A stretch of DNA of 64,000 bases from an uncultured Gammaproteobacteria bacterium (GTDB taxonomy: Bacteria > Patescibacteriota > Patescibacteriia > Patescibacteriales > GWC2-42-12). The notes under the pieces are model-generated. The model was not told the origin of the DNA, searched no databases, and was given only the letters and a program-made list of their open reading frames with translations. The stretch spans positions 2,059 to 66,058 of the forward strand of contig CAYXNZ010000005.1 in NCBI GenBank assembly GCA_964467155.1, given 5' to 3'. This document shows, in pieces, positions 6,901 through 53,047 of this stretch; within the stretch, counting starts at the first letter, position 1; every line of letters starts with the position of its first letter. Position numbers and translations under genes: made by a program.

Positions 6901-7287
6901 GGTTAGATTAGTATTGAATTTCCAATGAGATAATATTTGACCAAAAATATCGGTCGTGGCTGATTCGGCTGATTGGTTATATGAGATGATGTATATATTA
7001 GTGTAGAGATCCCCCGTAGTTGAAACGTTGGCAGCATTAACATAAACAGTCCGACCATCGCGAACTGCTTCATAACCATCAACTGTTATTGACTGAGGTG
7101 AACCATCAAACCCTTGTTCATTGTACCAACGATAGGCGCTATAGTGTTCGTTGTTTGGCATTACACGTAAACCAATAGCGTCGGGCGAAGTAGTAGCTTG
7201 TCCAATAGAATTATTTAACAATAAAAACCCTAGTAGCAATAATGTAAAAAGTATTAATTTAAAACAATTTTTATTTTTTAAATTCAT
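3895..7287 (-). CDS. Large secreted surface/adhesin-like protein, paralogue B (shared N-terminal module, Ig-like repeats, CGDG Cys-rich repeat, beta-propeller)
   Basis: 1130-aa ORF with a signal peptide and the same N-terminal ~260-aa module as 271-2991. It has a YCGDG...EVCEDGN Cys-rich repeat. A run of NHL/Vgb-like propeller blades follows (GDIWIANRNSGNVTKLD, GNIWVVNNSSGTIRVLD, DNVWLGGYNGG). Confidence 0.75.
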   Translation of the reverse strand: MNLKNKNCFKLILFTLLLLGFLLLNNSIGQATTSPDAIGLRVMPNNEHYSAYRWYNEQGFDGSPQSITVDGYEAVRDGRTVYVNAANVSTTGDLYTNIYIISYNQSAESATTDIFGQILSHWKFNTNLTEPGMCSQSSDVVCLTNDNCPINEYCLSQKAKTIRDTRRLSDMVEINRALENYKAIHGYYPKLESGSYLPNKTLSTWPSWQDNLATELGIVLPVDPINKLGTCDDYDETTCWNSEIKEFAGSIPDNLPENSQAYVFDVSSDGSSYSGCSVMESGYFDTSQNNVCAQSTIEYFEQIENHPPIIQLPTSGLRAGYAVINLVAGQKLEYFLSAFDPDNDDLSPISLWEINAGNLNNWIDSQWSSVPERQNTEVSNIKKIYVQSVGQAGEYYFSVTVNDGRGGIDNINFRVVVTNQPPVIEVNSASVVAGHNDFVVNPFTIRATDYDNHYPLTFNILGQLPQGLSGQKIDDNTFQIDGIPVGSYPQDTDYQLNISVTDNYGASSEEDFTITVVNNPPIFTTTPVTEVRVGNYYSYDVEATDSQDNHLITQYRFGDRRISDLNIDSSTGLVDGIASVPIGRYEIDLEAIDQYDAVGRQNYELWVKTYCGDGLQQNPNDEGDEEVCEDGNTENIDACSDTCQWTCKAMDIDFNNGRGDGVVYDDDNNSSHVEDVNEGEYLKLLGVMPTPYIWIANSGIEKVAKLRTFDGPKRDCKRNTDGTVDCWWVDGTWEKMGQLIGTYNVGSNPSRTAVNVETGDIWIANRNSGNVTKLDINGVHLKTCATGSGPRGVAIEKNGDVWVGNYSGGGVVKISGDDTHCEILKTINVGSYGLAIDSNGNIWSSHGTNGATKIDVNNNFTTTHYPAGGGYGITIDLDDNVWLGGYNGGHGAIRLNSSTGGVNYFGTGYNGLGITVDLNNNIWPSTYTNNGILKISPGNHPAGLDYVFRINSGGSDAHGACGDSQGNIWVVNNSSGTIRVLDSGGNILGANSTVSNATIGTDGLRVFKAYEDGAPSTTYSYSDMTGLNRALLLRSGVWEDTFDSGFVNQHWGDISWEAIMTSEKQSIEIFVRASNDSNLNNFNWVTTQTWNSLEYNDDIRKGRYAQIKIKMRSSEKGITPVLWGLKMNCD

Positions 7288-36646: not shown

Positions 36647-36663
36647 TTAAATATCAATATTAT

Positions 36664-36701
36664 AAAAAAAAGGTTTAGAATTAATTCTAAACCTTTTTTT
36701 T
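36664..36701. terminator. Bidirectional terminator (perfect 24-nt palindrome)
   Basis: aaaaaaa-aggtttagaatt|aattctaaacct-tttttttt. A near-identical copy is at 48433-48467. Confidence 0.7.
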
Positions 36702-36718
36702 ATTTCTAAATTTTATAA

Positions 36719-36877
36719 CCCCCACCCCAGCCCCTCCAGAGGCGGGCAGGAGTAAACCGTATAAACGTTACTTCCCCCACCCCAGCCCTCCCCCACAACA
36801 AGTTGCGGGAGAGGGAGCACAACATTTACATAGTTCCCTCTCCCGCGAGGAACGAGCGGGGGAGGGTTAGGGAGAGA
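36719..36877. repeat. GC-rich modular palindromic repeat locus A (MITE-like)
   Basis: Contains module ggcaggagtaaaccgtataaacgtta, the left hairpin ccctccccc-acaacaagttgc-gggagaggg, the centre gcacaacatttacatagt, and the right unit CCCTCTCCCGcgaggaacgaGCGGGGGAGGGTTAGGGA (36836-36873). It ends 1 nt before the mscS stop codon. Confidence 0.8.
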
Positions 36878-37732
36878 CTACTTCCCTGCCTGATGCACCA
36901 CCATCTGTGGAAATGGAATCTCAATCCCCTCTTTATCAAAAGCAATTTTTAATCTTTTGCGGAACTCTCCAGCAACTGCCCATTGTTGAAGTGGTTTGGT
37001 ATCGCCTAATATCTTTACTATTATTGCTGAATCAGCAAACTCATTTACTCGAACAAAATGCGGTGCCTCAATTATAAATTCTTTCCATTCTGAATCATTA
37101 AATAATTCTTGTCCAACTTTATCTATCACTTTTATTAATTTTTCTAAATCAGTATCGTAAGCAACACCTAAATCAATATTTACTCTGGCAAATTCTTTTG
37201 ACAGATTAGCAACCTTGGTAATCTCACCGTGAGGAATATGATGAACTGTACCGTCTAAATCTCGTAAAACCGAAACGCGCAAATTAATATCCTCAACTGT
37301 GCCAGAGATATCTCCAACACGAATGACATCACCAACGCGATATTGATTTTCCAAAATTATAAATAATCCTGAGATAAGATCACGGATTAAATACTGACCG
37401 CCAAAACCAACTGCTAATCCAATAATCCCAGCCGCTGCAATCATCGGTCCAATTTCTACGCCAAACTCAGACACAATCATAATAGCCGCTACTATCCAAA
37501 TAATTAATTTAAGTGTTGTGTCAAAAATCTTGATTAAAGTATCTTCTCTTTTTTTCTCCGCTTCTGGGCTAATAAAATTTTTCGAAACCACTGTTTTTCT
37601 AACAGTTTTTTCAATTAATGAACCACTGAATGTTTTTATCAACCAAGCAACAATTATAATCGCTACTATTTTTAAACCATGAGTAATTAACCACGGTTCA
37701 AGTGTCTTGAATATATTTTCCACAATTTCCAT
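36878..37732 (-). CDS. mscS: Small-conductance mechanosensitive channel MscS
   Basis: 284 aa with 3 TM. The pore helix GLAVGFGGQYLIRDLISGLFIILENQYRVGDVI is present, along with full beta and alpha/beta cytoplasmic domains. Confidence 0.85.
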   Translation of the reverse strand: MEIVENIFKTLEPWLITHGLKIVAIIIVAWLIKTFSGSLIEKTVRKTVVSKNFISPEAEKKREDTLIKIFDTTLKLIIWIVAAIMIVSEFGVEIGPMIAAAGIIGLAVGFGGQYLIRDLISGLFIILENQYRVGDVIRVGDISGTVEDINLRVSVLRDLDGTVHHIPHGEITKVANLSKEFARVNIDLGVAYDTDLEKLIKVIDKVGQELFNDSEWKEFIIEAPHFVRVNEFADSAIIVKILGDTKPLQQWAVAGEFRKRLKIAFDKEGIEIPFPQMVVHQAGK

Positions 37733-37800
37733 ATTTTTTATATTAATTAATAAATAAATTATTAAGCATCGCTATTTTAGTATATCACAAAACCTTTATA

Positions 37801-38260
37801 TTCCCCCACACCAGCCCCTCCAATTCGGAGGACGGGAGAGGGAGCATATATTTATTATAGTCCCCTCTCCCGTGAGGAACGAACGGGGGAGGCCTGCCCG
37901 CCGAATTGGAGGGGTTAGGGAGGTTAAAATAAGAAAAAAAATAACCCCCTTAATCCCCCTTTACAAGAGGGACAAAATAGTTCCCTCTCCCGTGAGGAAC
38001 GAGCGGGGGAGGGGTTAGGGAGGGGGTTTCTTTCACTTTAGTCCACAAAAACCTAGACTAAAGTCTATATTTTAAATTTCTATTCTGTCATTCTGAGGAT
38101 CTTTATAACCCCCACCCCAACCCTCCCCCACAACAAGTTGCGGGAGAGGGAGCACACATTTGCATAGTTCCCTCTCCCGTGAGGCACGAACGGGGGAGGC
38201 CTGCCCGCCGAATTGGAGGGGTTAGGGAGGGGGTCTCTTATCCCCTCCTTCTCCCCTTTC
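37801..38260. repeat. GC-rich modular palindromic repeat locus B (three right-hand units plus accessory hairpins)
   Basis: Right-hand units lie at 37863-37923 (long variant), 37983-38026 (short) and 38170-38233 (long). The accessory hairpin ccccctttacaagaggg lies in 37941-37980. A gtcattctgaggatc module is at 38088-38101. Confidence 0.8.
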
Positions 38261-38389
38261 TTATCCACATTTTTTTATGAGCGTTATCCCAGAATCATCA
38301 ACTTGACTACTTACCTAGTTTTAATTTTTAATATAAAGATATAGCACGTCTTTTTATTCTTGAAATTTATTTTTTTTATTTTTAAAAAA

Positions 38390-38398
38390 TGCTATAAT
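38390..38398 (+). promoter_or_regulatory. Extended -10 promoter element TGCTATAAT upstream of the giant surface-protein gene
   Basis: Same 9-mer as at 19409 and 21508. It lies ~390 nt upstream of the ATG at 38787. Confidence 0.4.
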
Positions 38399-38617
38399 AT
38401 AACAAAGTTATCCACATTAAAAATTTATTAAAATAATCTAAAAATCACAAATAGATTTTTCTGTAATAATTCTAATAATAATATTTGCATACATAAAAGA
38501 TAATAATATAATATTATTAAAGTATTATTATCTAGATTTAAATTTTTATCTAGTTATTTTATTTCTGTTTTATTACCCATGCAAGGTTTAACTCAGACAA
38601 TCAAACAAACAAATATA

Positions 38618-38666
38618 AAAGCTTGCTTTTTTATAAAGGTCGACTTTAAGCAAGCGGTTTTTTATA
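38618..38666 (+). terminator. Terminator-like hairpin inside the long leader (possible attenuator or sRNA end)
   Basis: gcttgctt (38621-28), a 19-nt loop, aagcaagc (38648-55), followed by ggtttttta. Confidence 0.3.
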
Positions 38667-38786
38667 TCCAAAAAATTAATTAATTAAATACTAAATAAAT
38701 CAATTTCCAAAACACACTCATTAGCGTTTAACATATAATTTATTTAATTTAAAAAACGCTAAGTGGTTTGGAATAAGGAAAATATT

Positions 38787-41700
38787 ATGATTAAAAAAAC
38801 TAAAAAAATGAAACTTCTATCAAAGCTTTTTATTATAGCTTTGGTTATTAGCTTTGGCGCTCTAGGTAGTGCTTTTTCACCAATTGAACAAGCGCAAGCG
38901 GCGGCGGATATCACTCTATCAGATGATACCATCAATGAAGGTTCGGAAAATGAAGAATTAATTACTGTCACGTTAGCAGGTGATACCTTTGTTGGTTCTC
39001 TTAATACAGCCAACTGGGCGGTTACCAATCTCCCAGCTGGAGTAGTAAAATCAACTATCTCCAGGACAGACGAAACTACTGTCACGATTGCTTTAAGCGG
39101 TGATAGAGCTGTGGATTATGATACCAGTATTGAAAATGTGACTGTGACAATAGCAGCTGCTGAATTTACAAGTTCTGCAGTCCAAGTTTCAGCAAGCACT
39201 GGCGTAACTTTAGTAGCCACTGCTGACGATGAATCTGTTACTGCTGCCTGGGCAACTTCTCCTGGTACAAGTGGAGCAGAAGCTACAATGGATGCTGAAG
39301 TTCTAACTGTTACCTTAGCTGGCGGTACTTTGATTTCAGAGCAAGTTACTATTGGTAATATCACCGCTACTGGAACAGCTGTTAGTGCAGCAGGAGTAAC
39401 TATTGAAAGTGTTACCTGGACTGATGCCACACACTTTGATGTTGCTTTGGCTTGGACTGCGACAGATTATGACGAAGATAAAACACTTATTATTAATGTA
39501 GCCGCAGCTGCCTATGATGAAGGAGCTATCGCCATTGCTACTGACGAGATTACTCTGACGGCAACTGTTGAGCCAATTGCGATTGCTCTCAGTGACAATA
39601 CTATCGCTGAAGGTTCGGAAAGTGCAGGAGTGATTAATGTGACACTGACAGAAGATACTTTTATAGCAACCTTGGTTCAAGGAAACTGGGCGGTTACCAA
39701 CCTTCCAACTGGAGTAACAAAAGGAACTGTTACCAGGTTGAGCGATACTACTGCTACGATCGCTTTAGTTGGCGACAGAGATGAAGATTATGATACCAGT
39801 ATTACTAACGTGATTGTGACTGTTCAGGCTGGAGACTTGACTCTTTCAGATGCTATAGTCGCTTCAGATGGCACCGGTGTGACCTTAGTAGCCACTGACG
39901 ATGCTGAATCTATTGCAATTACAAATGATGGAATAACAGAAGGCGCAGAAGGTGGCGAAGTTATTACCGTTACTTTAACAGGCGGTACATTTGCAGACCC
40001 ATTAGTCCCAGCAAGCTGGGTAGTTACCAACCTTCCAAGCGGCGTTACAGCTGGTGATCCCGAGAGGACAAGCGCTACAGAAGCCACGATTACTTTAAGT
40101 GGAAACAGAGATGTAGATTATGATTCAAATATTACTGATTTAACAGTAACAGTAGCTTCTGATGACATAGACGATATTGATGTTCCTGTTTCAATAGCTA
40201 CAGGTGTTACATTCACGGCCTCTAATGATGCAGAATCTGTTGCTGCTACTTGGAATGGGGATCCTGGAACTAATGGAGCAGAGGCAACTTTAGATGCAGA
40301 TATAATAACTGTTACTCTTACTGATGGTACTTTTGTTAAAGCTAGTGTGGATAATATTACAATAAGTGCCGGTGCAGGAATAACAAAAGAAAGTGTAACT
40401 TATACCGATTCAACTAATGTAGATATATTATTGGCTTGGGATGGAACAGATTTTGACGATCATGAAACAATAACAGTTAGTGTGCCGGTCACGGCTTACG
40501 CAGATTCAACAAGCGGCGACGCGATTACAGATACAATTAATACTGTTGCAACTGATGATGGTGAATCTATTGCAATTACAAATGATGGAATAACAGAAGG
40601 CGCAGAAGGTGGCGAAGTTATTACCGTTACTTTAACAGGCGGTACATTTGCAGACCCATTAGTCCCAGCAAGCTGGGTAGTTACCAACCTTCCAAGCGGC
40701 GTTACAGCTGGTGATCCCGAGAGGACAAGCGCTACAGAAGCCACGATTACTTTAAGTGGAAACAGAACTGTAGATTATGATTCAAATATTACTGATTTAA
40801 CTGTGACAGTGGCTGCTGGTGACATAGATGATTCTGGCGGCTCTGTTTCAATAGCTACTGGTGTTACATTCACGGCAACTGATGATGGTGAATCTATTGG
40901 AGTTGCCTGGGCAGGAACTCCCGGTACTAATGGAGTAGAAGCGACAATGGATGCTGAAATAGTAACTGTTACTCTATCTGACGGTACTTTGATTGAAGGT
41001 TCGGTTAATGCTACGAATATTACTGCTACTGGAACAGCCGTTGATGATGCTGGAGTAACTATTGAAAGTGCTACTTATGTCGATGCTACAAGTTTTACTG
41101 TCGCTTTGGCTTGGGATGACACGGATTATGATGTTAATAAAATTTTAACTATTAATGTAGCCGCAGTTGCCTACGATGATGCAGGTGGCGCCATCACCGG
41201 AGATATTACTTTGACAGCAACTGTTGAGCCACCTTCGATAGCCTTGACAGACGATACTATCAATGAGGCTGCAGAAACTGGCGAACTGATTACCGTCACG
41301 TTGACAGGTGATACTTTTGTTGAGAGTTTGACTCAAATAAACTGGACAGTCACCAACCTCCCAACTGGAGTATCAAAAGGAACTGTCACCAGGACAGGCG
41401 CTACTACTGCTACGATTGCTTTAAGTGGAAACAGAACTGTAGATTATGATACAAGTATTGAAAATGTGACTGTGACTATTGCAGCCGATGAACTTTATTC
41501 ATATACTCTTGGTTCAATTTTAGCAAGCACCGGCGTAACTTTGGTAGCCGATGCTAGCGCTGAAACTATCGGAGTTGCCTGGGCAGGAACTCCTGGCACT
41601 AGTGGAGTAGAGGTGACTATGGATAGCGAAATCGTAACTGTTACCTTGACTGAAGGTACTTTGATTTCAGATCAGGTTAATATGACTAATATCACCGCTA

Positions 41701-44700
41701 CTGGAACAGCTGTTAATAGCGCGGAAGTAACTATTGAAAGTGTTACTTATACTGACACCACACACTTTAATGTTGCTTTGGCATGGAGTGGACTAAATTA
41801 TGATGTTGAAAAAACACTTACCATTAATGTAGCTGGAGCTACCTATGATGAAGGAACTGATCCTATTACTGACGATATTACTTTGACGGCGACTGTTGAG
41901 CCAACAGTAGAAGTAACCATGGGTGCTAATACTTTTAAGGTTGAAGAATCAACCCTGGTTACATTTACCTTCTCATCAGCTCCAACTGGATTTACAGTTG
42001 ATGATGTGACTACTATTGATAATGGTCTTCTTTCAGGATTCACAGTTACTGGTGATACAAAGATTTACACTGCAACTTTTACACCAACTGATGATACAGA
42101 AGCCGCAACAAATGTTATTACAGTTGGAACTGATTGGACTGATGGCACAAGCGCTCCATTAGCAGGAGATAGTTCTCCTAATTATACTATTGATACGAAG
42201 GAACCAACAATTACTATTACATCAAATGACGAAGCTCTATATACCGGAGATGCTGTCGCCACAATTACTTTTGATATTATTGGAGGCACGGTAGACTTTG
42301 CCCTTGAAGATGTTGTCGCGGTTGGTGGCAATCTTAATGCTTTCACAGAAGTATCAGCTGGAGTTCAATATACTGCTATCTTTACCGCGAGTAACGATAG
42401 TACTACTGGCGCAACAATTAATGTAGCGGCTGGAACATTCACAGATGCTGCTGGAAATAACAATACAGTTGCAATTCAAGAAACAATGACGGTTGATACT
42501 CTTGCTCCAACAATAAATACTGTTACTTCTAATGCTACAGAAACTGGTACATTAAAAGTGGGTGATGCGATTATTTTCACAGTTACACCTACTATCCAAG
42601 AAGCTGGCTTAACTGTTCTTCCTGCTACTTATAATGGAGGTGCTTTATCATGGTCAACTGGCGATAGTGGAGTAACCTATACCGCAACCTATACTGTTGC
42701 AGAAGACCAAACTGACCAGGATCCAGCTTTACAATTATTAGGCGTTACTTTGACAGATGCGGTTAGTAATACTGGCGCTGGTGTTAATGGTACTGATGTA
42801 GCAAAATTGATTGATGCTAATTCACCTGACATAACTTCTGTTACTTCTAATGCTACAGTAGAAGGTACATTAAAAGTAACCGATATGATTGTTTTCACAA
42901 TTACACCTGTTGTTCAAGAAGCTGGCTTAACTGTTGCTCCTACTACTTACAATGGAGGGACATTAGAATGGTCAAGTGTTGATGGAACAACCTATATCGC
43001 AACTTATACTGTTGTAGAAGACCAGGACGATCAGGATCCAGCTTTACAATTAACAAGCGTTACTTTGACAGATGCAGCTGGGAACGATGGTGTTTCTGCT
43101 GATGGCGCCGATGTAGCGAAGAAGATTGATGCTAATACTCCAACCGCAGCCTTTACGGCAGCCACAGATAATGTCGGTTCTGTCATGGGTCCTTTGAATA
43201 CTGGCGACACGACCGATGATACTGAGCTTCTACTTACCGGTGCCAATGAAACCGGTTCGACTGTGGAAGTCTTTAACGGAGCAGCATCGTTAGGCGCAGC
43301 CACAGTTAATGGCACTGGTTGGACTTACTCCGCTACTGTTGTTAATGGCACAACTTATCAATTCAATATTAAAGAAACAGACGCGGCAGGAAATATTAGC
43401 GATGCAACAGATGACTTCACAGTGATAGGAGATACCGCCGCTCCAACAGCCGTAGTTGTAGCCAACGAGGTTGCTATTTATGACAGTGATGCTGGTACTG
43501 ATGCATTTATAATTACTGCAACATTCTCTGAGGCTATGGATAATACAAAGATTCCAACCGTAGTATTCGATGCTGCTTTAGACTCAACTTTAACAAGTCC
43601 AGAAGGTGCTTGGAGTACAGTTGCTCATGATAATGATACATATACCTGGACTTATGATATTGCAGATGCAGGTGTTACAGTTGCAGATGTTGATGTCACT
43701 GTTGATGGTGGTGATGATATAGCAGGTAATGATCAGACTGCTAAAACTAATACAGATTACATTGATGTTGATACAGAAAATCCAACCACAACAATTTCCG
43801 ATGACGAAGATGGCGTAGCCAATATTACCGGTGGCAATATTACTTATACTTTTACCTTCGGTGAAGGTGTAACAGATTTTACTGTTGCTGAAGCTGTTGT
43901 AACGGGTGGTACTAAAGCTGTGGATTTCGCATCAGGTGTTTCTGGTGAGGCCGTCTATACTCTTGTAGTTACCCCAGACTCTGATTCTACAACTAATATT
44001 ACTGTCAATGTCGCCGGTGGCGTAGCTATTGATATAAACGGTAATGACAATGTTGTAGCTGCTGAATCAACACAGACAGTTGATACTCTGAGACCAACCG
44101 TTGGCATTACTGATGATAATGCTGGTACCGTCAATGACGGTAATCCCGAAGTGCTTTATACTTTTGAATTCAGCGAAAATGTTACCGGCTTTACCACCGA
44201 CGATGTCACTGTGACCGCTGGAGGAATCGCAGGCGAATTCAGCGCCACTGATGGCAGCAATACATATACTTTGGCTGTGACTGCGGACGATGGCAGTACC
44301 ACAAATATTAGTTTAACCATTTCTAATGCTGATTTAATTGATGCTAATAGCAATACTATGGCCGCTGATGCGACTGACACCGATCAAGCGGTTGATAGAA
44401 TAGAGCCAACCCTCTCAAGCGCTGCGCGAGATAACAATACACAAATTACTGTTACTCTAAGTGAACTTGCTAATGGAAGTAGCATTACTGATGCAAGTGA
44501 TGGTGGTTTCGTTGTTGCTGAAACTGACGCAGCTGAAACTACTTATGCAGTTTCGGATATCACTCCAGGAGTTACTAACGATTTAGTAGTCTTAACTGTT
44601 GCTGATCTCGGAGTATCTGCTAAAGAAGGCATTACCGTTACTTACTCTTCTGCAAACAACGGAGCCGTAACCGATGTAGCAGAGAATGATCTTGCTACAG

Positions 44701-46454
44701 ACACAACCGGTGTGACAATCGCTGCCTGGGATACGACAGCTCCAACTGTCATAGATGTGACATCTAATTTAGAAGATGGCTCATACAAAGTAGATCAAGT
44801 TGTTGATATTGATGTGACTTTTTCGGAAAATGTTATTTCTTCTGGCGATGTAACTATTACTTTTGATACAGGCGGAACTTGTACTTTCACAGTAGATGAT
44901 TCTGATACTGGAACATGTAACTACACTGTACTTGTAGGACATACCAGCGCTGATCTAACAGTCTCTTCTATTACTGGTGTGGTGAATGATATTGCAGGTA
45001 ATACGCTTGTAGTACCTGCGACACCGACTACAAATCTTGCGGCTAATAAGGCATTCGTTATTGACACAACCGCGCCAGCACTTTCAGTTGATGCTATAGT
45101 TGGTACTACTGTTTCTGAAGCCAATGATACAATCGTCTTGAATTTTGACGGTCCAGTAGTAACACATGATGGCGGAGCTTGGGCGGTTGAAGAATTTGAT
45201 TCTATTTCAGGATCTGAATCCGGCACTCTTGTTCTTACTACTGCAACCTTTGAATATACTAGTAATACATTGACTATTACTCTAGATGAAACAACAGATC
45301 ATGAATACTTAAAAACTGGAGAAACATTAACAGTCAATCCAGCTACTGATAAGATTAAAGATGCCGCTGACAATTCTCTAGTTACAACTGCAGTGGAAGC
45401 GACAAATCCTGTTGGTGGTGATAGTGTAGCCCCAACAATCTCATCCATGGTTTATACCCAAGGGGAAACTACTGTTACCGTTATTAGACCATCAGTATAC
45501 GGTTTAACAACAAGAGTAACTACAACATTTGATGAAGCCATGGAAGAAGGAGTTAAACCTCAAATTGCAATTGATGCGCAGGGAACAAGCGTTGATGTTA
45601 CAGCAACTAATATGACAAAAACATCGAGTACCGTTTGGTATTATGATTGGACCGTCCCAAATATTGATGCTATTCAAGGTGAAGCGACTATTACGCTTAC
45701 AGGAACAGACCTTGCCGGTATTGCCTTTAATTCCGCCTCTACACAAACAGTAACTATTGATGAAAAAAGTCCGGTAATAGCAAATGGTGGAGTTACTTTA
45801 GATAAAGATTCATATAGAATAACTCAAGATGCTAATGTAGAGGTTACTGTGGTTGAAGATAACACTGCTTCAACGATAACTGTAAATGGAGTTTCAGCAA
45901 TTGAGTCTGAAACGGCAGGAACATGGATCGGAACATTTGCTCATGGACAAGTAGCCGTCAGCACTTATTCATTTGATGTTGTCTTGACAGACGCTTATGG
46001 AAATGTAACTACCCAGATGGTTCAATATAGAGTAGTAGCTGATACTGCAACTGAACCAACAGAAATATCTGTTACTACTGCTTTAGTTAAACGAATTGCT
46101 ACTAAAAATGGTGAGTTTGACGATGGTTGGAGATGGGTTTTAGATGTTACTCTTCCAACTGCTTCAACAACTTTAAGTATGAGTTTTGATGATTTGACTG
46201 GTGCTGGAACGATTGATGCTACTAATATCCGTTTCTATTCAGCTGAATCTGACCATACTTCTGCCGGTCCAATAGTAATTGCGGCATCAGGAGCTGGTAC
46301 AGAATGGTCAGAAAGCATACTTCTCGATACTGATTTATATTCTAATATTGCTGGTAGACAAATTCAGATTACTGTCCAAGCCGCTGTTCCAGAAGGTAGT
46401 ACTAGCGGTGCCTATTCTGCCAGTTATGACATTCAAGCCAGTTTAGTGGAATAA
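38787..46454 (+). CDS. Giant repeat-rich secreted surface protein (S-layer/adhesin-like), 2555 aa
   Basis: AAGGA RBS 8 nt before the ATG at 38787. Signal peptide MIKKTKKMKLLSKLFIIALVISFGALGSAFSPIEQAQA. About 8 N-terminal ~110-aa modules (..NWAVTNLPxGV..T.TR...T.ATIALSGNR.VDYD..I.N.TVT..) alternate with a second module type. These are followed by many ~95-aa bacterial Ig-like modules (TxDTxxPT...FSE.V.GFT..D........). The protein is T/A/V/D-rich and has no Cys. Confidence 0.85.
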   Translation: MIKKTKKMKLLSKLFIIALVISFGALGSAFSPIEQAQAAADITLSDDTINEGSENEELITVTLAGDTFVGSLNTANWAVTNLPAGVVKSTISRTDETTVTIALSGDRAVDYDTSIENVTVTIAAAEFTSSAVQVSASTGVTLVATADDESVTAAWATSPGTSGAEATMDAEVLTVTLAGGTLISEQVTIGNITATGTAVSAAGVTIESVTWTDATHFDVALAWTATDYDEDKTLIINVAAAAYDEGAIAIATDEITLTATVEPIAIALSDNTIAEGSESAGVINVTLTEDTFIATLVQGNWAVTNLPTGVTKGTVTRLSDTTATIALVGDRDEDYDTSITNVIVTVQAGDLTLSDAIVASDGTGVTLVATDDAESIAITNDGITEGAEGGEVITVTLTGGTFADPLVPASWVVTNLPSGVTAGDPERTSATEATITLSGNRDVDYDSNITDLTVTVASDDIDDIDVPVSIATGVTFTASNDAESVAATWNGDPGTNGAEATLDADIITVTLTDGTFVKASVDNITISAGAGITKESVTYTDSTNVDILLAWDGTDFDDHETITVSVPVTAYADSTSGDAITDTINTVATDDGESIAITNDGITEGAEGGEVITVTLTGGTFADPLVPASWVVTNLPSGVTAGDPERTSATEATITLSGNRTVDYDSNITDLTVTVAAGDIDDSGGSVSIATGVTFTATDDGESIGVAWAGTPGTNGVEATMDAEIVTVTLSDGTLIEGSVNATNITATGTAVDDAGVTIESATYVDATSFTVALAWDDTDYDVNKILTINVAAVAYDDAGGAITGDITLTATVEPPSIALTDDTINEAAETGELITVTLTGDTFVESLTQINWTVTNLPTGVSKGTVTRTGATTATIALSGNRTVDYDTSIENVTVTIAADELYSYTLGSILASTGVTLVADASAETIGVAWAGTPGTSGVEVTMDSEIVTVTLTEGTLISDQVNMTNITATGTAVNSAEVTIESVTYTDTTHFNVALAWSGLNYDVEKTLTINVAGATYDEGTDPITDDITLTATVEPTVEVTMGANTFKVEESTLVTFTFSSAPTGFTVDDVTTIDNGLLSGFTVTGDTKIYTATFTPTDDTEAATNVITVGTDWTDGTSAPLAGDSSPNYTIDTKEPTITITSNDEALYTGDAVATITFDIIGGTVDFALEDVVAVGGNLNAFTEVSAGVQYTAIFTASNDSTTGATINVAAGTFTDAAGNNNTVAIQETMTVDTLAPTINTVTSNATETGTLKVGDAIIFTVTPTIQEAGLTVLPATYNGGALSWSTGDSGVTYTATYTVAEDQTDQDPALQLLGVTLTDAVSNTGAGVNGTDVAKLIDANSPDITSVTSNATVEGTLKVTDMIVFTITPVVQEAGLTVAPTTYNGGTLEWSSVDGTTYIATYTVVEDQDDQDPALQLTSVTLTDAAGNDGVSADGADVAKKIDANTPTAAFTAATDNVGSVMGPLNTGDTTDDTELLLTGANETGSTVEVFNGAASLGAATVNGTGWTYSATVVNGTTYQFNIKETDAAGNISDATDDFTVIGDTAAPTAVVVANEVAIYDSDAGTDAFIITATFSEAMDNTKIPTVVFDAALDSTLTSPEGAWSTVAHDNDTYTWTYDIADAGVTVADVDVTVDGGDDIAGNDQTAKTNTDYIDVDTENPTTTISDDEDGVANITGGNITYTFTFGEGVTDFTVAEAVVTGGTKAVDFASGVSGEAVYTLVVTPDSDSTTNITVNVAGGVAIDINGNDNVVAAESTQTVDTLRPTVGITDDNAGTVNDGNPEVLYTFEFSENVTGFTTDDVTVTAGGIAGEFSATDGSNTYTLAVTADDGSTTNISLTISNADLIDANSNTMAADATDTDQAVDRIEPTLSSAARDNNTQITVTLSELANGSSITDASDGGFVVAETDAAETTYAVSDITPGVTNDLVVLTVADLGVSAKEGITVTYSSANNGAVTDVAENDLATDTTGVTIAAWDTTAPTVIDVTSNLEDGSYKVDQVVDIDVTFSENVISSGDVTITFDTGGTCTFTVDDSDTGTCNYTVLVGHTSADLTVSSITGVVNDIAGNTLVVPATPTTNLAANKAFVIDTTAPALSVDAIVGTTVSEANDTIVLNFDGPVVTHDGGAWAVEEFDSISGSESGTLVLTTATFEYTSNTLTITLDETTDHEYLKTGETLTVNPATDKIKDAADNSLVTTAVEATNPVGGDSVAPTISSMVYTQGETTVTVIRPSVYGLTTRVTTTFDEAMEEGVKPQIAIDAQGTSVDVTATNMTKTSSTVWYYDWTVPNIDAIQGEATITLTGTDLAGIAFNSASTQTVTIDEKSPVIANGGVTLDKDSYRITQDANVEVTVVEDNTASTITVNGVSAIESETAGTWIGTFAHGQVAVSTYSFDVVLTDAYGNVTTQMVQYRVVADTATEPTEISVTTALVKRIATKNGEFDDGWRWVLDVTLPTASTTLSMSFDDLTGAGTIDATNIRFYSAESDHTSAGPIVIAASGAGTEWSESILLDTDLYSNIAGRQIQITVQAAVPEGSTSGAYSASYDIQASLVE
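39906..40109 (+). repeat. Exact 204-bp intragenic repeat, copy 1
   Basis: Base-for-base identical to 40563-40766 (checked by eye). The offset of 657 bp equals 219 codons. Confidence 0.9.
40563..40766 (+). repeat. Exact 204-bp intragenic repeat, copy 2
   Basis: Identical to 39906-40109. Near-identity continues for ~40 bp further downstream. Confidence 0.9.
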
Positions 46455-46503
46455 ACCAAAATGATAACTTCTAATTTGTTAATAAATTAATATATATTAT
46501 GAT

Positions 46504-48252
46504 ATGAAAATACATAAAATTATCTTTTTGGTTACTCTAGGGCTATTGTTAACCGCTTCAACTTGTCTTGCTACCTGGACAATCGATAACGGTATTAGTA
46601 CTGGTAGTGGTGAAGCCATTACTGCTTACGAACCCGTTGCTAGTCCAGCTGCAGGAACATATCATGCTACCCAAAGTGTTATTTTAACAGCTACTGACGC
46701 TTCAGCTATTTGTTATACTATCGATGATAGTGATCCAGATTGCGCGACTGCAACTACTTGTAGTACTGGTACGGTTTATGATTCGGCTATTTCCGTGACC
46801 TTAACGGATACTATTAAAGCTATTTCTTGTTATGATGATAATAGTTATGTTTCTAAGTCTACTGTTGCTACTCATACTTATACTTTAACCTGCACAACCA
46901 GCAGTGTAACCAACGGAACAGTTGGAGCTTATTCGGGTTGTGCTGTTACTTGTAATTCTGGTTATACTTTGAGTGGTAGTACCTGTGTTACTTCCGGCGG
47001 AGGTGGCGGAAGTAGTGGTGGCTCTACAGCTACTGTACCAACCACACAACAAACTTCCATTACAACTACTGATGGAACACAAGTAACTACTTCAACTGAT
47101 ACTACTGGCGGAACCGCTACTGCTACTATTAATACTGTTTCATCCCCTACTAATAGCCAAACAGTTACCCTAGATACTTCCACTGTTGCTGATGCAAGCA
47201 GTGTTTCTGTTGAACTATCTGCTTTAGTTATGCAGGAGCTGGTCGCTGATCATGGCGCTGACATAGACTTAACCGTTAATATTACTAGTCAAACTGCTTC
47301 CTCTGACCAAAGAACAAGTACTGCTCTAGGTACTGGTACATTTTTAGTCGGTCTTGATGTTTTTAATGTAGAAATTCTGGCTGGAGACACTTCTATTACC
47401 AATTTTGACAATCCGCTAACTCTTTCTTTTGATGTTTCAGATATACCAAACCCAGAAAATTTAACTATCTCTTGGTTTGATACAACGCAAAACAAATGGG
47501 TGGATTTAGGTGGTACTCTATATGATGGTGTGCTAACAATTACTGTTAATCACTTAACTGACTTTGCAGTTATTAGAACAGGCACTACTACTGAAACTAC
47601 ACCTGCTACTACCCCTGAAACCAGTCCTACCGCTACCGTCACTACACGTGAACAACAAATCGTAAATATCTTAAATGAATCTTCTCTGATTTTTGATAGT
47701 GGTTATGATTTGACCAATTTACTATCTCATAATGGAGTAGCAGAAAATGCAACCGAACAAACTGCTAGCATGGAAAAATATACCAATACTTTAACTGCCG
47801 ACATGACTGACCTGACAACTGAAAATACTTACTCAATCAACAACTTTATTCTTTATGGTACTCAAACCACGAGAGTATTAGGCGCTGGTGAAAGAGCTGG
47901 TGTGGTTAATTCCTATAAATCAGCCTTTGATAAATTACCAACTACCGCTGATGAATGGGCTGATGTCATTAAAATCGGTAATGGTCGCTGGCCAAGCGAG
48001 GCTAGTCAAACTGCCGAAGATCGAGCAAAAATTAGCTTCAATACAATTTACTTGCGTGAAGCAGACATGGCTAATCCAAATGATAATGCCGCTGTCACCG
48101 TTATGGCCTACGGACTACGACCGGATGCGAGAAATTTAGACAGTGAGAAAGTCGCCATTAAAACCTTCAAAGCAATCTTTGGTTACAACCCAGTCGAAGC
48201 AACTTCTTGGGATGCAGTCAGAGCTATCGCCTACTCAGGTGCTGTGAGATAA
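46504..48252 (+). CDS. Secreted protein with N-terminal chitobiase/hexosaminidase-C-like (Fn3-associated) domain and a conserved C-terminal domain
   Basis: 582 aa with a signal peptide. PAAGTYHATQSVILTATDASAICYTIDDSDP is the typical CHB_HEX_C-like pattern. There are T/S/G-rich linkers. The C-terminal part is ...GAGERAGVVNSYKSAFDKLP...GNGRWP...WDAVRAIAYSGAVR. Confidence 0.75.
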   Translation: MKIHKIIFLVTLGLLLTASTCLATWTIDNGISTGSGEAITAYEPVASPAAGTYHATQSVILTATDASAICYTIDDSDPDCATATTCSTGTVYDSAISVTLTDTIKAISCYDDNSYVSKSTVATHTYTLTCTTSSVTNGTVGAYSGCAVTCNSGYTLSGSTCVTSGGGGGSSGGSTATVPTTQQTSITTTDGTQVTTSTDTTGGTATATINTVSSPTNSQTVTLDTSTVADASSVSVELSALVMQELVADHGADIDLTVNITSQTASSDQRTSTALGTGTFLVGLDVFNVEILAGDTSITNFDNPLTLSFDVSDIPNPENLTISWFDTTQNKWVDLGGTLYDGVLTITVNHLTDFAVIRTGTTTETTPATTPETSPTATVTTREQQIVNILNESSLIFDSGYDLTNLLSHNGVAENATEQTASMEKYTNTLTADMTDLTTENTYSINNFILYGTQTTRVLGAGERAGVVNSYKSAFDKLPTTADEWADVIKIGNGRWPSEASQTAEDRAKISFNTIYLREADMANPNDNAAVTVMAYGLRPDARNLDSEKVAIKTFKAIFGYNPVEATSWDAVRAIAYSGAVR

Positions 48253-48410
48253 AGCTTGCTTGTCCGCCGAAGCTTTAGCGTAGGCGGAGGATGCAGTCAG
48301 AGCGATTGCCTATTCAGGAGCTGTAAGATAAAGCTTGCTTGTCCGCCGAAGCTTTAGCGTAGGCGGAGGATGCAGTCAGAGCTATCGCCTACTCCGGAGC
48401 TGTGAGATAA
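48253..48410 (+). repeat. Two tandem 79-bp units, each a 37-nt GC hairpin spacer plus a copy of the last 13 codons and stop of the upstream gene
   Basis: Spacers at 48253-48289 and 48332-48368 are identical (TCCGCC-N14-GGCGGA). Tail copies at 48290-48331 and 48369-48410 still encode DAVRAIAYSGAVR-stop. Confidence 0.9.
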
Positions 48411-48432
48411 TACTTGATTTCAATTACATACC

Positions 48433-48467
48433 AAAAAAGGTTTAGAATCAATTCTAAACCTTTTTTT
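48433..48467. terminator. Bidirectional terminator (copy of the 36664-36701 hairpin)
   Basis: aaaaaa-aggtttagaat-ca-attctaaacct-ttttttt. Confidence 0.7.
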
Positions 48468-48488
48468 ATTGTCTAAATTTTTTGTCAT

Positions 48489-48700
48489 ATCCCCCTCCCT
48501 AACCCTCCCCCACCTCGCCGATTCGGCGGGCGGGAGAGGGAGCACGCGTTTGCATAGTTCCCTCTCCCGTGAGGAACGAGCGGGGGAGGGTTAGGGAGGG
48601 GGAAAATCCCCTCTCTTTTTTGTCATTCCCGCGAAAGCGGGAATCCCTGCCCGCCGGCAGGCAGGCAGGAGTAAACTGTATAAACGTTATTTGTTCCATT
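48489..48700. repeat. GC-rich modular palindromic repeat locus C (112-bp MITE-like unit with perfect 21-bp terminal inverted repeats, plus accessory hairpins)
   Basis: ccccctccctaaccctccccc (48491-48511) is the exact reverse complement of gggggagggttagggaggggg (48582-48602). The inner arms are cgggagaggga / tccctctcccg. Downstream lie the hairpin attcccgc-gaaa-gcgggaat (48625-48644) and the module ggcaggagtaaactgtataaacgtta. Confidence 0.85.
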
Positions 48701-48929
48701 TCATATCATGTAATAAATCTCTCCAAGTTGGATTTTCTTTTTTATACTCCATATTTCTACTGCTCTCTCCTGGATCCCCAGTCAAGCTGAGGATGACAAG
48801 CAGAGATTTATTTGTTCCTTAGTTGTACCTAGAGTATAAATGCCAATGATTATTTAGACATTATTTATTCTTTAGACGGTTTGCATTAAAAGCTCCAGTT
48901 AAAAACTGGAGCTAGCGAGGTAACCTAAA

Positions 48930-49101
48930 TACGTCCCCTCTCCCGTGAGGAACGAGCGGGGGAGGGTTAGGGAGGGGGAAGAAATAAAAATTAAAATAAC
49001 CCCCTCAATCCCCCTTTGCAAGGGGGACAAATACGTCCCCTCTCCCGTGAGGAACGAACGGGGGAGGCCTGCCCGCCGGATTGGAGGGGTTAGGGAGGAG
49101 G
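48930..49101. repeat. GC-rich modular repeat locus D (two right-hand units plus the ccccctttgcaaggggg hairpin)
   Basis: Units lie at 48936-48978 (short) and 49038-49101 (long, with a nested cctgcccgccggattggag insert). The hairpin lies in 48996-49030. The locus ends directly at the ftsX stop codon (49102-49104). Confidence 0.8.
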
Positions 49102-50016
49102 TTACACCTTCGAGTACTTCCCTACTGCTATCAAACTAGCTAAAACATTTATAAATGCTGCCGCTAAAAATTCCAACCCAAATATCATGAAGAAGTTGCT
49201 ATTATAAAAAGAAATGAGATTAAAACCATAATCTGAAAAGAATGATGCCAAATAAGGCTGCAGAAGCCCCAAAAATGGATAGAATAACGCTATAGTTATC
49301 AACACACCAATAAACGTATAAACTAAGCTAGAAACAAGATATGGCGCTCTAATAAACCAATTTGAAGCCCCCACTAGCTTCATAATGCCAATTTCTCTTT
49401 TGTGGGTATAAATTGCTACCCTGATTGAATTGTAAACTACCAAAAGCATAATAATCACAAAAAGCGCACTGATAAACAAACCTGCTTGACTGGCTTTTTC
49501 AGCTATCAAATTAATCTTGGTAATCATTGCTTTGTGGTCATCAAAATTCTTTGATTCAATAATATCATCTTCTACCTTTACTAAAGATTCAATCAACTCA
49601 TCATATTTATTAGTATCTTTTGGTTTGACTATTAAACTGGGTGATAACGGATTTTTTCCTAATTCAATCAACGCCTCAAGTATCTCTGGGTCGTTTTTAT
49701 GTTCAATTCGAAATGTTTCCAAAGCTTCAGCTTTAGAAATATAATTAACTTGTTTAACTTGACTTAATGCATTAATTTTTGATTGTAAATTAACAATTTC
49801 CGTTTCAGCTGAATCTGATTTCAGATATAAACTAACATCAATTTTTTCTTTGACAGCTTGAATTGTTTCACTACTAATTATTTTTACAACAAGCAATAAA
49901 TTAATAGAAAAGAGTGCTAAAACTAAAATAGTAATAGTAGCGATTGATAACCAAATATTTCGCCCCACGTCTTGTACGCTCGCTTTTATTACTCTTAAAA
50001 ATGATAAAATAAACAT
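49102..50016 (-). CDS. ftsX: Cell-division ABC transporter permease-like protein FtsX
   Basis: TM1, a periplasmic domain and 3 TM, immediately downstream of ftsE. The start is set to the ATG at 50016 (MFILSFLRVIKASVQDVGRN..), just after the ftsE stop at 50021. Confidence 0.8.
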   Translation of the reverse strand: MFILSFLRVIKASVQDVGRNIWLSIATITILVLALFSINLLLVVKIISSETIQAVKEKIDVSLYLKSDSAETEIVNLQSKINALSQVKQVNYISKAEALETFRIEHKNDPEILEALIELGKNPLSPSLIVKPKDTNKYDELIESLVKVEDDIIESKNFDDHKAMITKINLIAEKASQAGLFISALFVIIMLLVVYNSIRVAIYTHKREIGIMKLVGASNWFIRAPYLVSSLVYTFIGVLITIALFYPFLGLLQPYLASFFSDYGFNLISFYNSNFFMIFGLEFLAAAFINVLASLIAVGKYSKV

Positions 50017-52620: not shown

Positions 52621-52693
52621 GCCGACCTAGCTCAACTGGTAGAGCAACGGTATCGTAAACCGTAGGTTGTGGGTTCAATTCCCACGGTCGGCT
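52621..52693 (+). tRNA. tRNA-Thr (anticodon CGU)
   Basis: Manual cloverleaf: GCCGACC/GGTCGGC acceptor, D-arm GCTC-AACTGGTA-GAGC, anticodon stem ACGGT/ACCGT with loop ATCGTAA, T-arm GTGGG-TTCAATT-CCCAC. CCA is not encoded. Confidence 0.85.
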
Positions 52694-52700
52694 CAAATAA

Positions 52701-52820
52701 ACGGTATCGCCCGCCCGCAACGACTTACGTCTTGCGGAAGTCGAGCGGGTAAACCGTAGGTTGTGGGTTCCCTGCCCGCTCGTGCCTCGCAGAGGCAGGC
52801 GGGAATTCCCACGGTCGGCT
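52701..52820 (+). pseudogene. Partial tRNA-Thr copy A (anticodon stem to 3' end) with a 40-nt hairpin inside the anticodon and a 33-nt hairpin in the T-loop
   Basis: ACGGTATCG[52710-52749]TAAACCGTAGGTTGTGGGTTC[52771-52803]AATTCCCACGGTCGGCT. Apart from the two inserts it is identical to tRNA-Thr positions 27-73. Confidence 0.8.
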
Positions 52821-52827
52821 CAAATAA

Positions 52828-52947
52828 ACGGTATCGCCCGCCCGCAACGACTTACGTCTTGCGGAAGTCGAGCGGGTAAACCGTAGGTTGTGGGTTCCCT
52901 GCCCGCTCGTGCCTCGCAGAGGCAGGCGGGAATTCCCACGGTCGGTT
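52828..52947 (+). pseudogene. Partial tRNA-Thr copy B (second 127-bp tandem unit)
   Basis: Same structure as copy A, with inserts at 52837-52876 and 52898-52930. There is one C>T change in the acceptor 3' strand (GGTCGGT). Confidence 0.8.
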
Positions 52948-52954
52948 CAAATAA

Positions 52955-53047
52955 ACAGTGCTGGATCCGGGCTTTGTCCGGAGCTATAGTGAAATTTTAC
53001 CCGTCCGAATCCGCCAACTGGCGGAATATGCGGGCCCACGGTCGGTT
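52955..53047 (+). pseudogene. Third, more degraded tRNA-Thr 3'-end remnant preceded by other GC hairpins
   Basis: Ends in CCCACGGTCGGTT (the T-stem 3' strand plus acceptor). Upstream are the hairpins TCCGG-gctttgt-CCGGA and TCCGCC-aact-GGCGGA (53010-53025). Confidence 0.55.

Follow-up and report, generated by a model that had tools for sequence, protein, structure and literature searches.

Repeat clusters and their three-block unit

The window analysed here is a stretch of 64,000 nucleotides from contig CAYXNZ010000005.1 of assembly GCA_964467155.1 (positions 2,059 to 66,058, forward strand), which comes from a Patescibacterium of 35% GC, and its subject is a GC-rich repeat first noticed as a 112-bp element at 48491-48602. 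The copies of this repeat in the window are all intergenic and lie in three places: 36715-36880, between the genes of a 440-aa membrane protein (+) and MscS (−); 37800-38235, between MscS (−) and the gene of a 2563-aa protein (+); and 48487-49101, between the gene of a 582-aa protein (+) and FtsX (−). The gene content of the window, together with the named homologues of MscS, places it in the Patescibacteria. An earlier reading, made from the sequence only, had described the element as one of a non-coding, modular family of MITE type (MITEs being miniature transposable elements with inverted repeats) with perfect 21-bp terminal inverted repeats (TIRs). All the sequences quoted in that reading were found where it had placed them, and its account of a non-coding modular repeated family, often arranged as inverted doublets, was borne out. 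The perfect inverted repeat was confirmed with arms extending to 22 nt each (48490-48511 / 48582-48603, 100% complementary, spacing 70 nt), and the inner palindrome CGGGAGAGGGA/TCCCTCTCCCG was found at 48531-48541 / 48559-48569.

Scanning of the window with up to 2 mismatches gave seven copies of the 30-nt core CCCTCTCCCG-YGAGGMACGAR-CGGGGGAGG, all on the + strand as had been reported, starting at 36836, 37863, 37983, 38170, 48560, 48936 and 49038, with a chance expectation of 0 (none in 100 dinucleotide shuffles). The intact unit is longer than this core and has the layout CCCTCTCCC-gtgaggaacgagc-GGGGGAGGG-tta-GGGAGGGGG, that is, three blocks with a first loop of 13 nt, of which block 2 (GGGGGAGGG) and block 3 (GGGAGGGGG) are exact mirror images. 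The 21-bp TIRs of the 112-bp element are in fact block 2, TTA and block 3 of two opposed units. In class II purine-motif intrastrand triplex repeats, by definition, one strand carries in succession a pyrimidine block, the purine block complementary to it and a third block that runs antiparallel to the latter; the valid triads are G*G·C, A*A·T and T*A·T, with at most one mismatch for stems of at least 7 nt. A triad finder based on this definition returned eight of nine valid triads at six sites in the window, three on the + strand (37983-38026, 48560-48602, 48936-48978) and three on the − strand (48491-48540, 38109-38150, 36774-36815), and no site in 40 composition-preserving shuffles. The repeat features are as follows.

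48491-48602, − and +: doublet E, the reported 112-bp element, a − unit head-to-head with a + unit, each with 8/9 triads
48560-48602, +: intact unit CCCTCTCCC-gtgaggaacgagc-GGGGGAGGG-tta-GGGAGGGGG, 8/9 triads, the failing triad being T·G
48491-48540, −: intact unit CCCTCTCCC-gcccgccgaatcggcgaggt-GGGGGAGGG-tta-GGGAGGGGG, from the triad finder
48936-48978, +: solitary intact unit without left arm, from core scan and triad finder
48998-49027, −: accessory module, a second type of triplex motif (CCCCCTT-gca-AAGGGGG-attga-GGGGGTT), 7/7 triads, 0 in 40 shuffles
~37938-37970: degenerate copy of the same accessory module
49038-49101, +: unit with a 20-nt insertion (CCTGCCCGCCGGATTGGAGG), ending 1 nt before the FtsX stop codon (49102-49104)
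37983-38026, +: solitary intact unit with GTTA as second loop, from core scan and triad finder
38109-38233, − and +: doublet D, − unit 38109-38150 and + unit 38170-38233, the latter with the 20-nt insertion
37800-37923, − and +: doublet B, degenerate − unit and + unit 37863-37923, the latter with the 20-nt insertion
36774-36877, − and +: doublet A, − unit 36774-36815 and + unit 36836-36877
36715-36773, +: partial C-rich fragment with module ggcaggagtaaaccgtataaacgtta, a second copy of the module lying at 48666-48691

The 20-nt insertion CCTGCCCGCCGAATTGGAGG interrupts the G-rich part in 3/7 of the + units (37863, 38170 and 49038), and the last block is truncated in the 36836 unit, where the third block of the + unit of doublet A meets the MscS stop codon (36878-36880). 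Doublet A is identical in the strain contigs L001-L003 and L136 (comparison loci are designated by L numbers throughout). The − unit of doublet D has the loop gcaacttgttgt and the third block GGGTGGGGG. Accessory modules at 37951/49011 and 36747/48666 were confirmed. Common to all four doublets is one polarity, a − unit of loop type 2 followed by a + unit of loop type 1, from which it follows that the doublet was copied in one piece, resembling in this the obligatory A+B pairs of E. coli.

Relation to BoxC/PIT/TM_ECO motifs

The finding is real and non-random and is of a described repeat class. The core unit is probably a class II purine-motif repeat of the BoxC/PIT/TM_ECO type, and as such best regarded as a selfish or structure-prone repeat that gives rise to hot spots of recombination and indels, rather than as an RNA gene or regulatory site. 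Repeats of the BoxC/PIT/TM kind were already known in the 1990s; the literature places them between genes and, where this pattern is concerned, in Proteobacteria. The TM_ECO pattern (earlier BoxC, PIT) reads CCCTCNCCC-N3-6-GGGNGAGGG-N3-GGGNGAGGG; its second loop is TTA in type A and CCG in type B, forms with one mismatch are frequent, and it was counted 3610 times in 262 proteobacterial genomes (Holder 2015, PMC4666352). In E. coli K-12 the motif is always intergenic, lacks strand bias and often forms inverted A + B pairs; it showed no link to mobile elements and was inactive in E. coli both as a promoter and as a terminator. In the form of single-stranded oligonucleotides it makes a stable triplex in vitro, and its loci are far more rearranged than control loci among 56 E. 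coli strains (PMC4666352).

Like TM_ECO, the window unit has three C-G-G blocks built from the same core words (CCCTCTCCC, GGGNGAGGG-type) with a mirrored third block, the type A second loop, frequent inverted pairs of two non-identical subtypes, and intergenic clusters that carry no linked transposase and are hypervariable between close strains. Blocks 1 and 2 (CCCTCTCCC, GGGGGAGGG) and the TTA loop fit the published pattern, and the single failing triad of nine, which is the T:G pair picked out in the sequence-only reading, falls at the N/N position of that pattern, where TM_ECO tolerates its mismatch. Block 3 of the window unit mirrors block 2 exactly, yet it is not the literal GGGNGAGGG; relatives with the same loop, borne in GatA genes, have the literal published pattern GGGAGAGGGG-TTA-GGGGTGAGGG. 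The window copies agree with the described class in being intergenic, transposase-free and strain-variable, the exception being in-frame genic copies in other metagenome-assembled genomes (MAGs).

The window unit is different from the described class in its long conserved first loop, its host phylum and its in-frame genic relatives. Its first loop is 13 nt with conserved YGAGGNACGAR, whereas that of TM_ECO is 3-6 nt; its block 2 is GGGGGAGGG with a T·G mismatch, where TM_ECO has GGGAGAGGG or a G·A mismatch; and its host is a Patescibacterium, not one of the Proteobacteria. There is no BLAST-level similarity to E. coli: BLAST with a 53-nt unit gave no match there, the query being short and of low complexity, and the relation to TM_ECO therefore rests on the published pattern and not on alignment.

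Constraint on the third block and strand symmetry

The scans of other genomes fixed the stem only and the tails were outside the search pattern. Among the metagenome hairpins listed, 57/126 were followed by G0-3, N1-4, G3-6, one non-G base and G4+. Two further G-tracts were present in 66 distinct units of other genomes; in these, the third block is interrupted by T (36 units), by A (27) or by a lone C (1), so that A/T (63/66) stands opposite the single A·T pair as the purine-motif rules require, and this is not an effect of composition because most of the host contigs are GC-rich. The G-run after the interrupter was exactly 5 in 57/66 units, mirroring the G5-A-G3 of block 2, and an upstream mirrored C-rich block was found in only 2-6/142 units. 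Three-way covariation was seen at L137 and L140, where units with the same loop have the blocks CCCCTCTCC / GGGAGAGGGG / GGGGTGAGGG, equal to the E. coli consensus. This comparative evidence suggests that the third block is under triplex pairing rules rather than shaped by descent alone, and that the structure as a whole, not just the hairpin, is constrained. Hairpin stability was rejected as an explanation, the solitary unit at 48936-48978 giving a Watson-Crick hairpin of z = −0.8 with its conserved G-tail unpaired.

The sequence-only reading had taken the + orientation of all seven copies, together with the T:G pair of their stem, as a sign of selection on a + strand transcript. The orientation stands for the loop subtype YGAGGMACGAR but not for the family, in which three intact units with other loops, the left arms of doublets E, D and A, lie on the − strand and carry T·G on that strand; because of these three units, selection for a + strand RNA is not indicated. 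Two of the clusters do come downstream of genes on the + strand, covariation (C-G / T-A / T-G) is seen in the Y-R pair that closes the loop, and many repetitive extragenic palindromic (REP) sequences are thought to act as RNA (PMC3733652). However, doublet E folds equally well on its two strands (RNA −91 / −92.5 kcal/mol, with z = −9.7 for the 120-nt element at −91 kcal/mol; DNA −48.9 / −49.1 kcal/mol), none of the Watson-Crick folds pairs the conserved third block, and the units come after a separate terminator-like hairpin and have no T-tracts of their own. Searches of Rfam 15 gave nothing credible at gathering or permissive thresholds, only generic miRNA-hairpin models far below gathering, and no relation of the units to tRNA or tmRNA was found. 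The T·G pair is moreover the N/mismatch position of the published DNA motif, units inside genes of other genomes are found in both orientations, the majority antisense, and RNA does not form triplexes of the purine motif (PMC4666352).

Distribution in other genomes

A genome collection with one genome per species was scanned with the core, allowing three N positions in an otherwise fixed loop, a design that cannot measure loop conservation. The MAGs with matches carry the labels Patescibacteria (3 contigs), Anaerolineaceae (3 contigs of 66% GC), Chloroflexota and Gammaproteobacteria, so the core is not lineage-specific. Copies on several contigs of other genomes and phyla agree with the initial view of a dispersed family. 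Local duplication as the sole explanation was rejected by these cross-genome copies. A scan of metagenomes with fixed stem and free loop gave at least 120 loci, all counts being lower bounds. Among the metagenome matches listed, the same stem occurs with dozens of different loops on contigs of 32-75% GC, a further short module, (C)GAGCGNAGCGAGG, comes after many of the high-GC units, and there were no further contigs of the window's own organism. The conserved loop of the sequence-only reading thus holds within a subfamily but not across the family, of which YGAGGNACGAR is best regarded as one subfamily among many. Complete Azospirillum replicons carry the inverted doublet with identical 21-nt outer blocks and a short first loop of 6-8 nt, and no copies were found in viral contigs and phage genomes. 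Judged by these matches, the family spans Patescibacteria, Chloroflexota and Azospirillum. What is new is that the three-block grammar, in a form with a long conserved loop which the published finders would miss, is present in these organisms, among them Patescibacteria with ultra-small genomes.

In-frame copies inside genes

Relatives of the unit are read in frame in several housekeeping and other genes. GatA at L005 has 12 residues more than two solved homologues, exactly at the unit, and MnmA at L009 carries an inverted doublet that adds about 27 residues relative to solved homologues, both in frame; a unit is likewise read in frame in a PorB-like thiamine pyrophosphate enzyme (L004) and in RsmA/KsgA (L006). 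The G-rich strand is antisense in GatA (three lineages) and RsmA and sense in the PorB-like gene. These in-frame genic copies are new, because published work described TM_ECO as always intergenic.

The GatA insertions occupy a permissive loop between ...FDGIKYG and ...YTKSRG, which is an insertion hot spot in Patescibacteria (loci L005, L137-L140). The loop is short in most of 120 Patescibacteria sequences and many others have different Pro/Gly-rich inserts; at least 6 insert types of 8-30 aa, Pro/Gly-rich, were seen among sequences 70-83% identical. At the DNA level the inserts are antisense-strand modules of triplex type, including the loop subtype of the window (three lineages) and also C6-loop-G6-CT-G7, a motif that is akin to the accessory module of the window. 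The insertion boundaries in gatA are approximate, the empty allele L139 being about 81% identical in protein and the filled alleles replacing about 26 nt. The hot spot nevertheless offers clean pairs of filled and empty alleles for working out the mechanism of insertion. For annotation, the units explain many spurious Pro/Gly/Arg-rich "hypothetical proteins" as well as odd inserts in conserved metagenome proteins.

Rickettsia palindromic elements (RPEs) were reportedly described by Ogata et al. in 2000 as selfish repeats in frame in protein-coding genes. The relatives of the unit are like RPEs in being palindromic repeats that a bacterium with a reduced genome tolerates in frame within surface loops of its essential proteins. 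They are unlike them in size (units of 43-105 nt vs ~100-150 nt) and in their triplex-type grammar, and the window copies are all intergenic; composition and length are clearly different from those of RPEs. RPE-4 and RPE-6 are mentioned in PMC3733652.

Strain-variable junctions and proposed mode of action

Two of the element clusters, 1b and 2, bracket a strain-specific segment:

37733-49101: island of ~11.4 kb, with one gene (38763-46454) for a Big_12 Ig-like protein of 2563 aa and another (46504-48252) for an Fn3-associated protein of 582 aa

At 39-48 kb its GC is 0.38-0.44, while the kb bins that adjoin the junctions on the outside have 0.31-0.36. The closest relatives (MscS 87% and 83% identical, FtsX 86%) have the order S11 peptidase, FtsE, FtsX, MscS, and FtsX and MscS are adjacent in L132, L133 and L134, with a gap of 46 nt in L132; in the window they are 11.4 kb apart with element clusters at both junctions. 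The junctions are hypervariable. A strain with a 98%-identical MscS has kept the downstream unit and has quite different TGTC-tagged hairpins at the upstream junction, and a third relative (L134) has a TIR-flanked 23S_rRNA_IVP cassette at the downstream site. The units show presence/absence polymorphism. Indels within units are flanked by short direct repeats: the 20-nt insert lies between copies of GGAGG, and of the two orthologous metagenome loci L037 and L082 one has a 27-nt segment gtgtcgagcgcagcgaggcgggggagg in the tail, between direct CGGGGGAGG repeats. The position of the units around a strain-specific island encoding a giant surface protein fits the proposed link between such repeats and genome plasticity.

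The proposed unit structure is a hairpin formed by pairing of block CCCTCTCCC with block GGGGGAGGG, onto which block GGGAGGGGG would fold back antiparallel to block 2 after the TTA turn, giving G*G·C and A*A·T triads with one T·G mismatch. The units would then act at the DNA level, the G-rich strand folding into this hairpin/triplex, possibly a G-quadruplex, whenever it becomes single-stranded in replication, repair or transcription. The folded strand may impede polymerases and so lead to slippage, template switching, breaks and microhomology-mediated events, by which units would be copied, interrupted or deleted and foreign DNA gained or lost beside them. In the window the outcome would be a mosaic of units bracketing the 11.4-kb island and a variable spot downstream of MscS. 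Mosaics, indels and the neighbouring island are explained if the sites are prone to slippage, template switching and recombination, and we infer such a DNA-level mechanism to be the most likely mode of action.

Several points weigh against this interpretation of the unit as a TM_ECO-type repeat acting through its structure. The published first loop of 3-6 nt is exceeded by loops of 12-20 nt in the window (13 nt in + units, or 9 nt if the stem is extended by two pairs), and the window unit is irretrievable by the published 3-6 nt pattern or by the ITxF finder, with its limits of 1-6 nt; those of Hoyne are 0-10 nt. Triplex formation with so long a loop is a prediction, and the triplex of TM_ECO itself was undetected in double-stranded DNA or in vivo by dimethyl sulphate footprinting (PMC4666352). 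The G-tracts G5-A-G3-TTA-G3-A-G5 could form a G-quadruplex, and the loop YGAGGNACGAR, found conserved across phyla, has no role in the triplex model. In-frame genic copies and the recurrent occupation of the GatA loop are unexplained by slippage alone, and an enzyme could be involved. The association with the island is a single case, and a compact genome simply has no permissive places other than its intergenic junctions.

Some further repeats were observed at the same junctions. In L134 (5003-5480) and L135 a gene for a 117-aa 23S_rRNA_IVP protein (PF05635, four-helix bundle) lies between MscS and a 408-aa gene, matching the site of doublet A in the window, and is flanked by inverted repeats of ~31 nt recognised by eye (aaattcaaaat...caaattccaaataaat); it looks like a small selfish cassette in the same hot spot. 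A terminator-like hairpin is present in two copies:

36662-36703, +: hairpin T1 (AAAAAAGGTTTAGAAT..ATTCTAAACCTTTTTT), duplicated at 48433-48466 along with the next ~15 nt downstream

The copy behind the 440-aa gene has its orthologue at L134 5487-5518; the second copy comes after the 582-aa gene of the island. Because both copies are directly upstream of a doublet or element cluster, it is suggested that the right end of the island was built by copying or recombining the T1 segment. Also at this end, 48210-48446 contains three tandem copies of a 79-nt unit (100%, 94% and 66%) whose start lies within the 3′ part of the gene for the 582-aa protein (its stop is at 48252); every copy contains the last ~43 nt of that gene and a hairpin TCCGCC-gaagctttagcgta-GGCGGA, and the third runs into the duplicated T1 hairpin. 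The 2563-aa open reading frame (ORF), missing from the syntenic position in relatives, has at least 6 Big_12 Ig-like domains encoded by DNA repeats of ~660-670 nt that are 61-94% identical (38874-41817), and further repeats of ~315 nt at 42493-43141.

Search for a mobiliser and alternative explanations

No transposase was found in the window by Pfam analysis of its 37 proteins, and all-against-all clustering of 2340 ORFs revealed no mobilising family recurrent beside 60 unit-bearing loci, only generic ABC-transporter families, pseudo-ORFs derived from the elements and, in 3 of the 60 loci, a small PD-(D/E)XK ORF recognised by eye as GxxExxY-like. A match of the units to plasmid or phage insertion sequences (ISs) was likewise not found. 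Small PD-(D/E)XK genes were observed next to gatC or near unit-bearing sites in several loci of Patescibacteria-like character, at L138 (500-664), L140 (734-1126), L004, L005 and L096. Those of L138 and L140 have precomputed PF13366 PDDEXK_3 matches, while the ORFs of L004 (− strand, reverse complement 4493-4874), L005 and L096 are GxxExxY-like by eye only; they are too few to call an association and are candidates only.

The classification as a MITE, proposed at first, was not upheld. Like classical MITEs (Correia/NEMIS, ERIC, RUP), the element is ~110 bp, non-coding and multi-copy, with terminal inverted repeats that here are perfect 22-nt arms. Unlike them, it lacks target-site duplications, none being seen by eye at the four doublets (E, D and A among them) or at the Azospirillum copies, and the flanks of doublet E (...gtcatat / aaaatcc...) have no direct repeat in common; there is no cognate IS in the window and none recurrent in the 60 loci. 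Its half-elements stand alone, and the supposed TIR is an internal functional block.

The units also share with REP, BIME and REPIN sequences, which are mobilised by RAYT transposases, and with the GTAG-/CGTC-tagged REP super-families (Di Nocera 2013, PMC3733652) the appearance of GC-rich palindromes in AT-rich intergenic DNA, with head-to-head dimers, mosaic clusters and occasional intragenic copies. By definition a REP sequence has at one end a GTAG or CGTC/TGTC tag that is unpaired, its stem of 8-9 bp begins with AT, and its loop is of 4-5 nt (PMC3733652). The units, in contrast, have no consistent GTAG/CGTC tag, the bases before them varying (...agtt, ...cgtc, ...agct, ...atct, ...ttac); their stem starts with C, their loop of 9-13 nt is much longer, and they have an additional conserved G-rich third block. 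No gene for a REP-associated tyrosine transposase (RAYT, a Y1 transposase) was found in the 64-kb window or in ~140 other loci, which represent partial genomes. A separate hairpin in the window does fit:

48620-48647, +: TGTC-tagged REP hairpin tGTC-ATTCCCGC-GAAA-GCGGGAAT-CC, CGTC-1/dRS3-like (PMC3733652), z = −3.6

Hairpins tagged with TGTC/CGTC (dRS3-like tGTCATTCCCGCGAAAGCGGGAATCC; relatives gtcatcctgaacgaagtgaaggatc, cgtcattgcgatcccgagtgttcgggagaagcaatc) occur in the same intergenic hot spots of this lineage, at 48620-48647, at 38083-38100 (truncated), at L132 4418-4446 and at the L136 and L134 junctions. They are a repeat class different from the units, and also cross-phylum. Because the hairpin at 48620-48647 fits the CGTC-1/dRS3 REP definition, the element clusters are mosaics in which, as in BIMEs or NIMEs, known classes of repeat are mixed, at least two of them here.

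Apart from the structure-prone TM_ECO-type repeat preferred here, other explanations were considered. It is possible, although we hold it unlikely, that the units are a mobile cross-phylum DNA module which spreads without a linked transposase, homes into permissive sites and provides joints for the insertion of islands. Spread may then take a structure-directed route or depend on an unrecognised enzyme that reads the conserved loop, and the GatA loop, filled by different triplex-type modules in many lineages of Patescibacteria, would be one homing site. If true, this would turn the 25-year-old problem of BoxC/PIT function into a tractable case of mobile non-B DNA.

Decidedly unlikely is a non-autonomous transposon, a MITE- or REPIN-like doublet moved in trans by a RAYT/Y1 HUH transposase or another nuclease or recombinase with its gene elsewhere in the genome, for which the triplex-like grammar would either be incidental or serve in recognition. 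The perfect ends of the inverted doublets, conservation of the whole doublet in Azospirillum, copies on several contigs per MAG, and clean filled vs empty alleles in housekeeping genes, always in frame, are in its favour, as is the single orientation of all four window doublets, which strand-specific single-strand transposition predicts. The loop conserved across phyla could be a protein-binding site, and REPs inside genes are known (PMC3733652). Nevertheless, the searches described above, which covered partial genomes, gave neither transposase nor RAYT, target-site duplications nor a consistent tag, solitary half-units are as common as doublets, and TM_ECO has no link to mobile elements (PMC4666352).

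A G-quadruplex of the four G-tracts, competing with the hairpin and being the constrained structure instead of the triplex, is very improbable. The four tracts of at least 3 G with loops of 1-3 nt are kept in nearly all members while the spacers vary, but a quadruplex requires neither the A/T interrupter nor G-run lengths that mirror block 2, and it leaves unexplained both the obligatory upstream C-block, which would compete with it, and the three-way covariation at L137/L140. In the work of Holder et al. (PMC4666352), TM_ECO was assigned to a triplex by circular dichroism and nuclear magnetic resonance; a quadruplex would in any case change the structure and not the classification. For the reasons given above, an RNA element of the + strand (a terminator, 3′-end stabiliser or small RNA, with G·U marking the transcribed strand) is scarcely credible.

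Further repeats in the window

Two other repeats in the window are remote from the clusters. A perfect tandem duplication of 127 nt (52677-52803 = 52804-52930) with a partial third copy occupies 52677-52959, its start falling inside the 3′ end of tRNA-Thr (52621-52694), and has the appearance of a scar of att type or from slippage at the tRNA gene. A direct repeat of 300 nt, 85% identical between 2198-2497 and 6500-6799, is common to two large genes for He_PIG/Ig-domain surface proteins on the − strand (271-2991 and 3895-7287).

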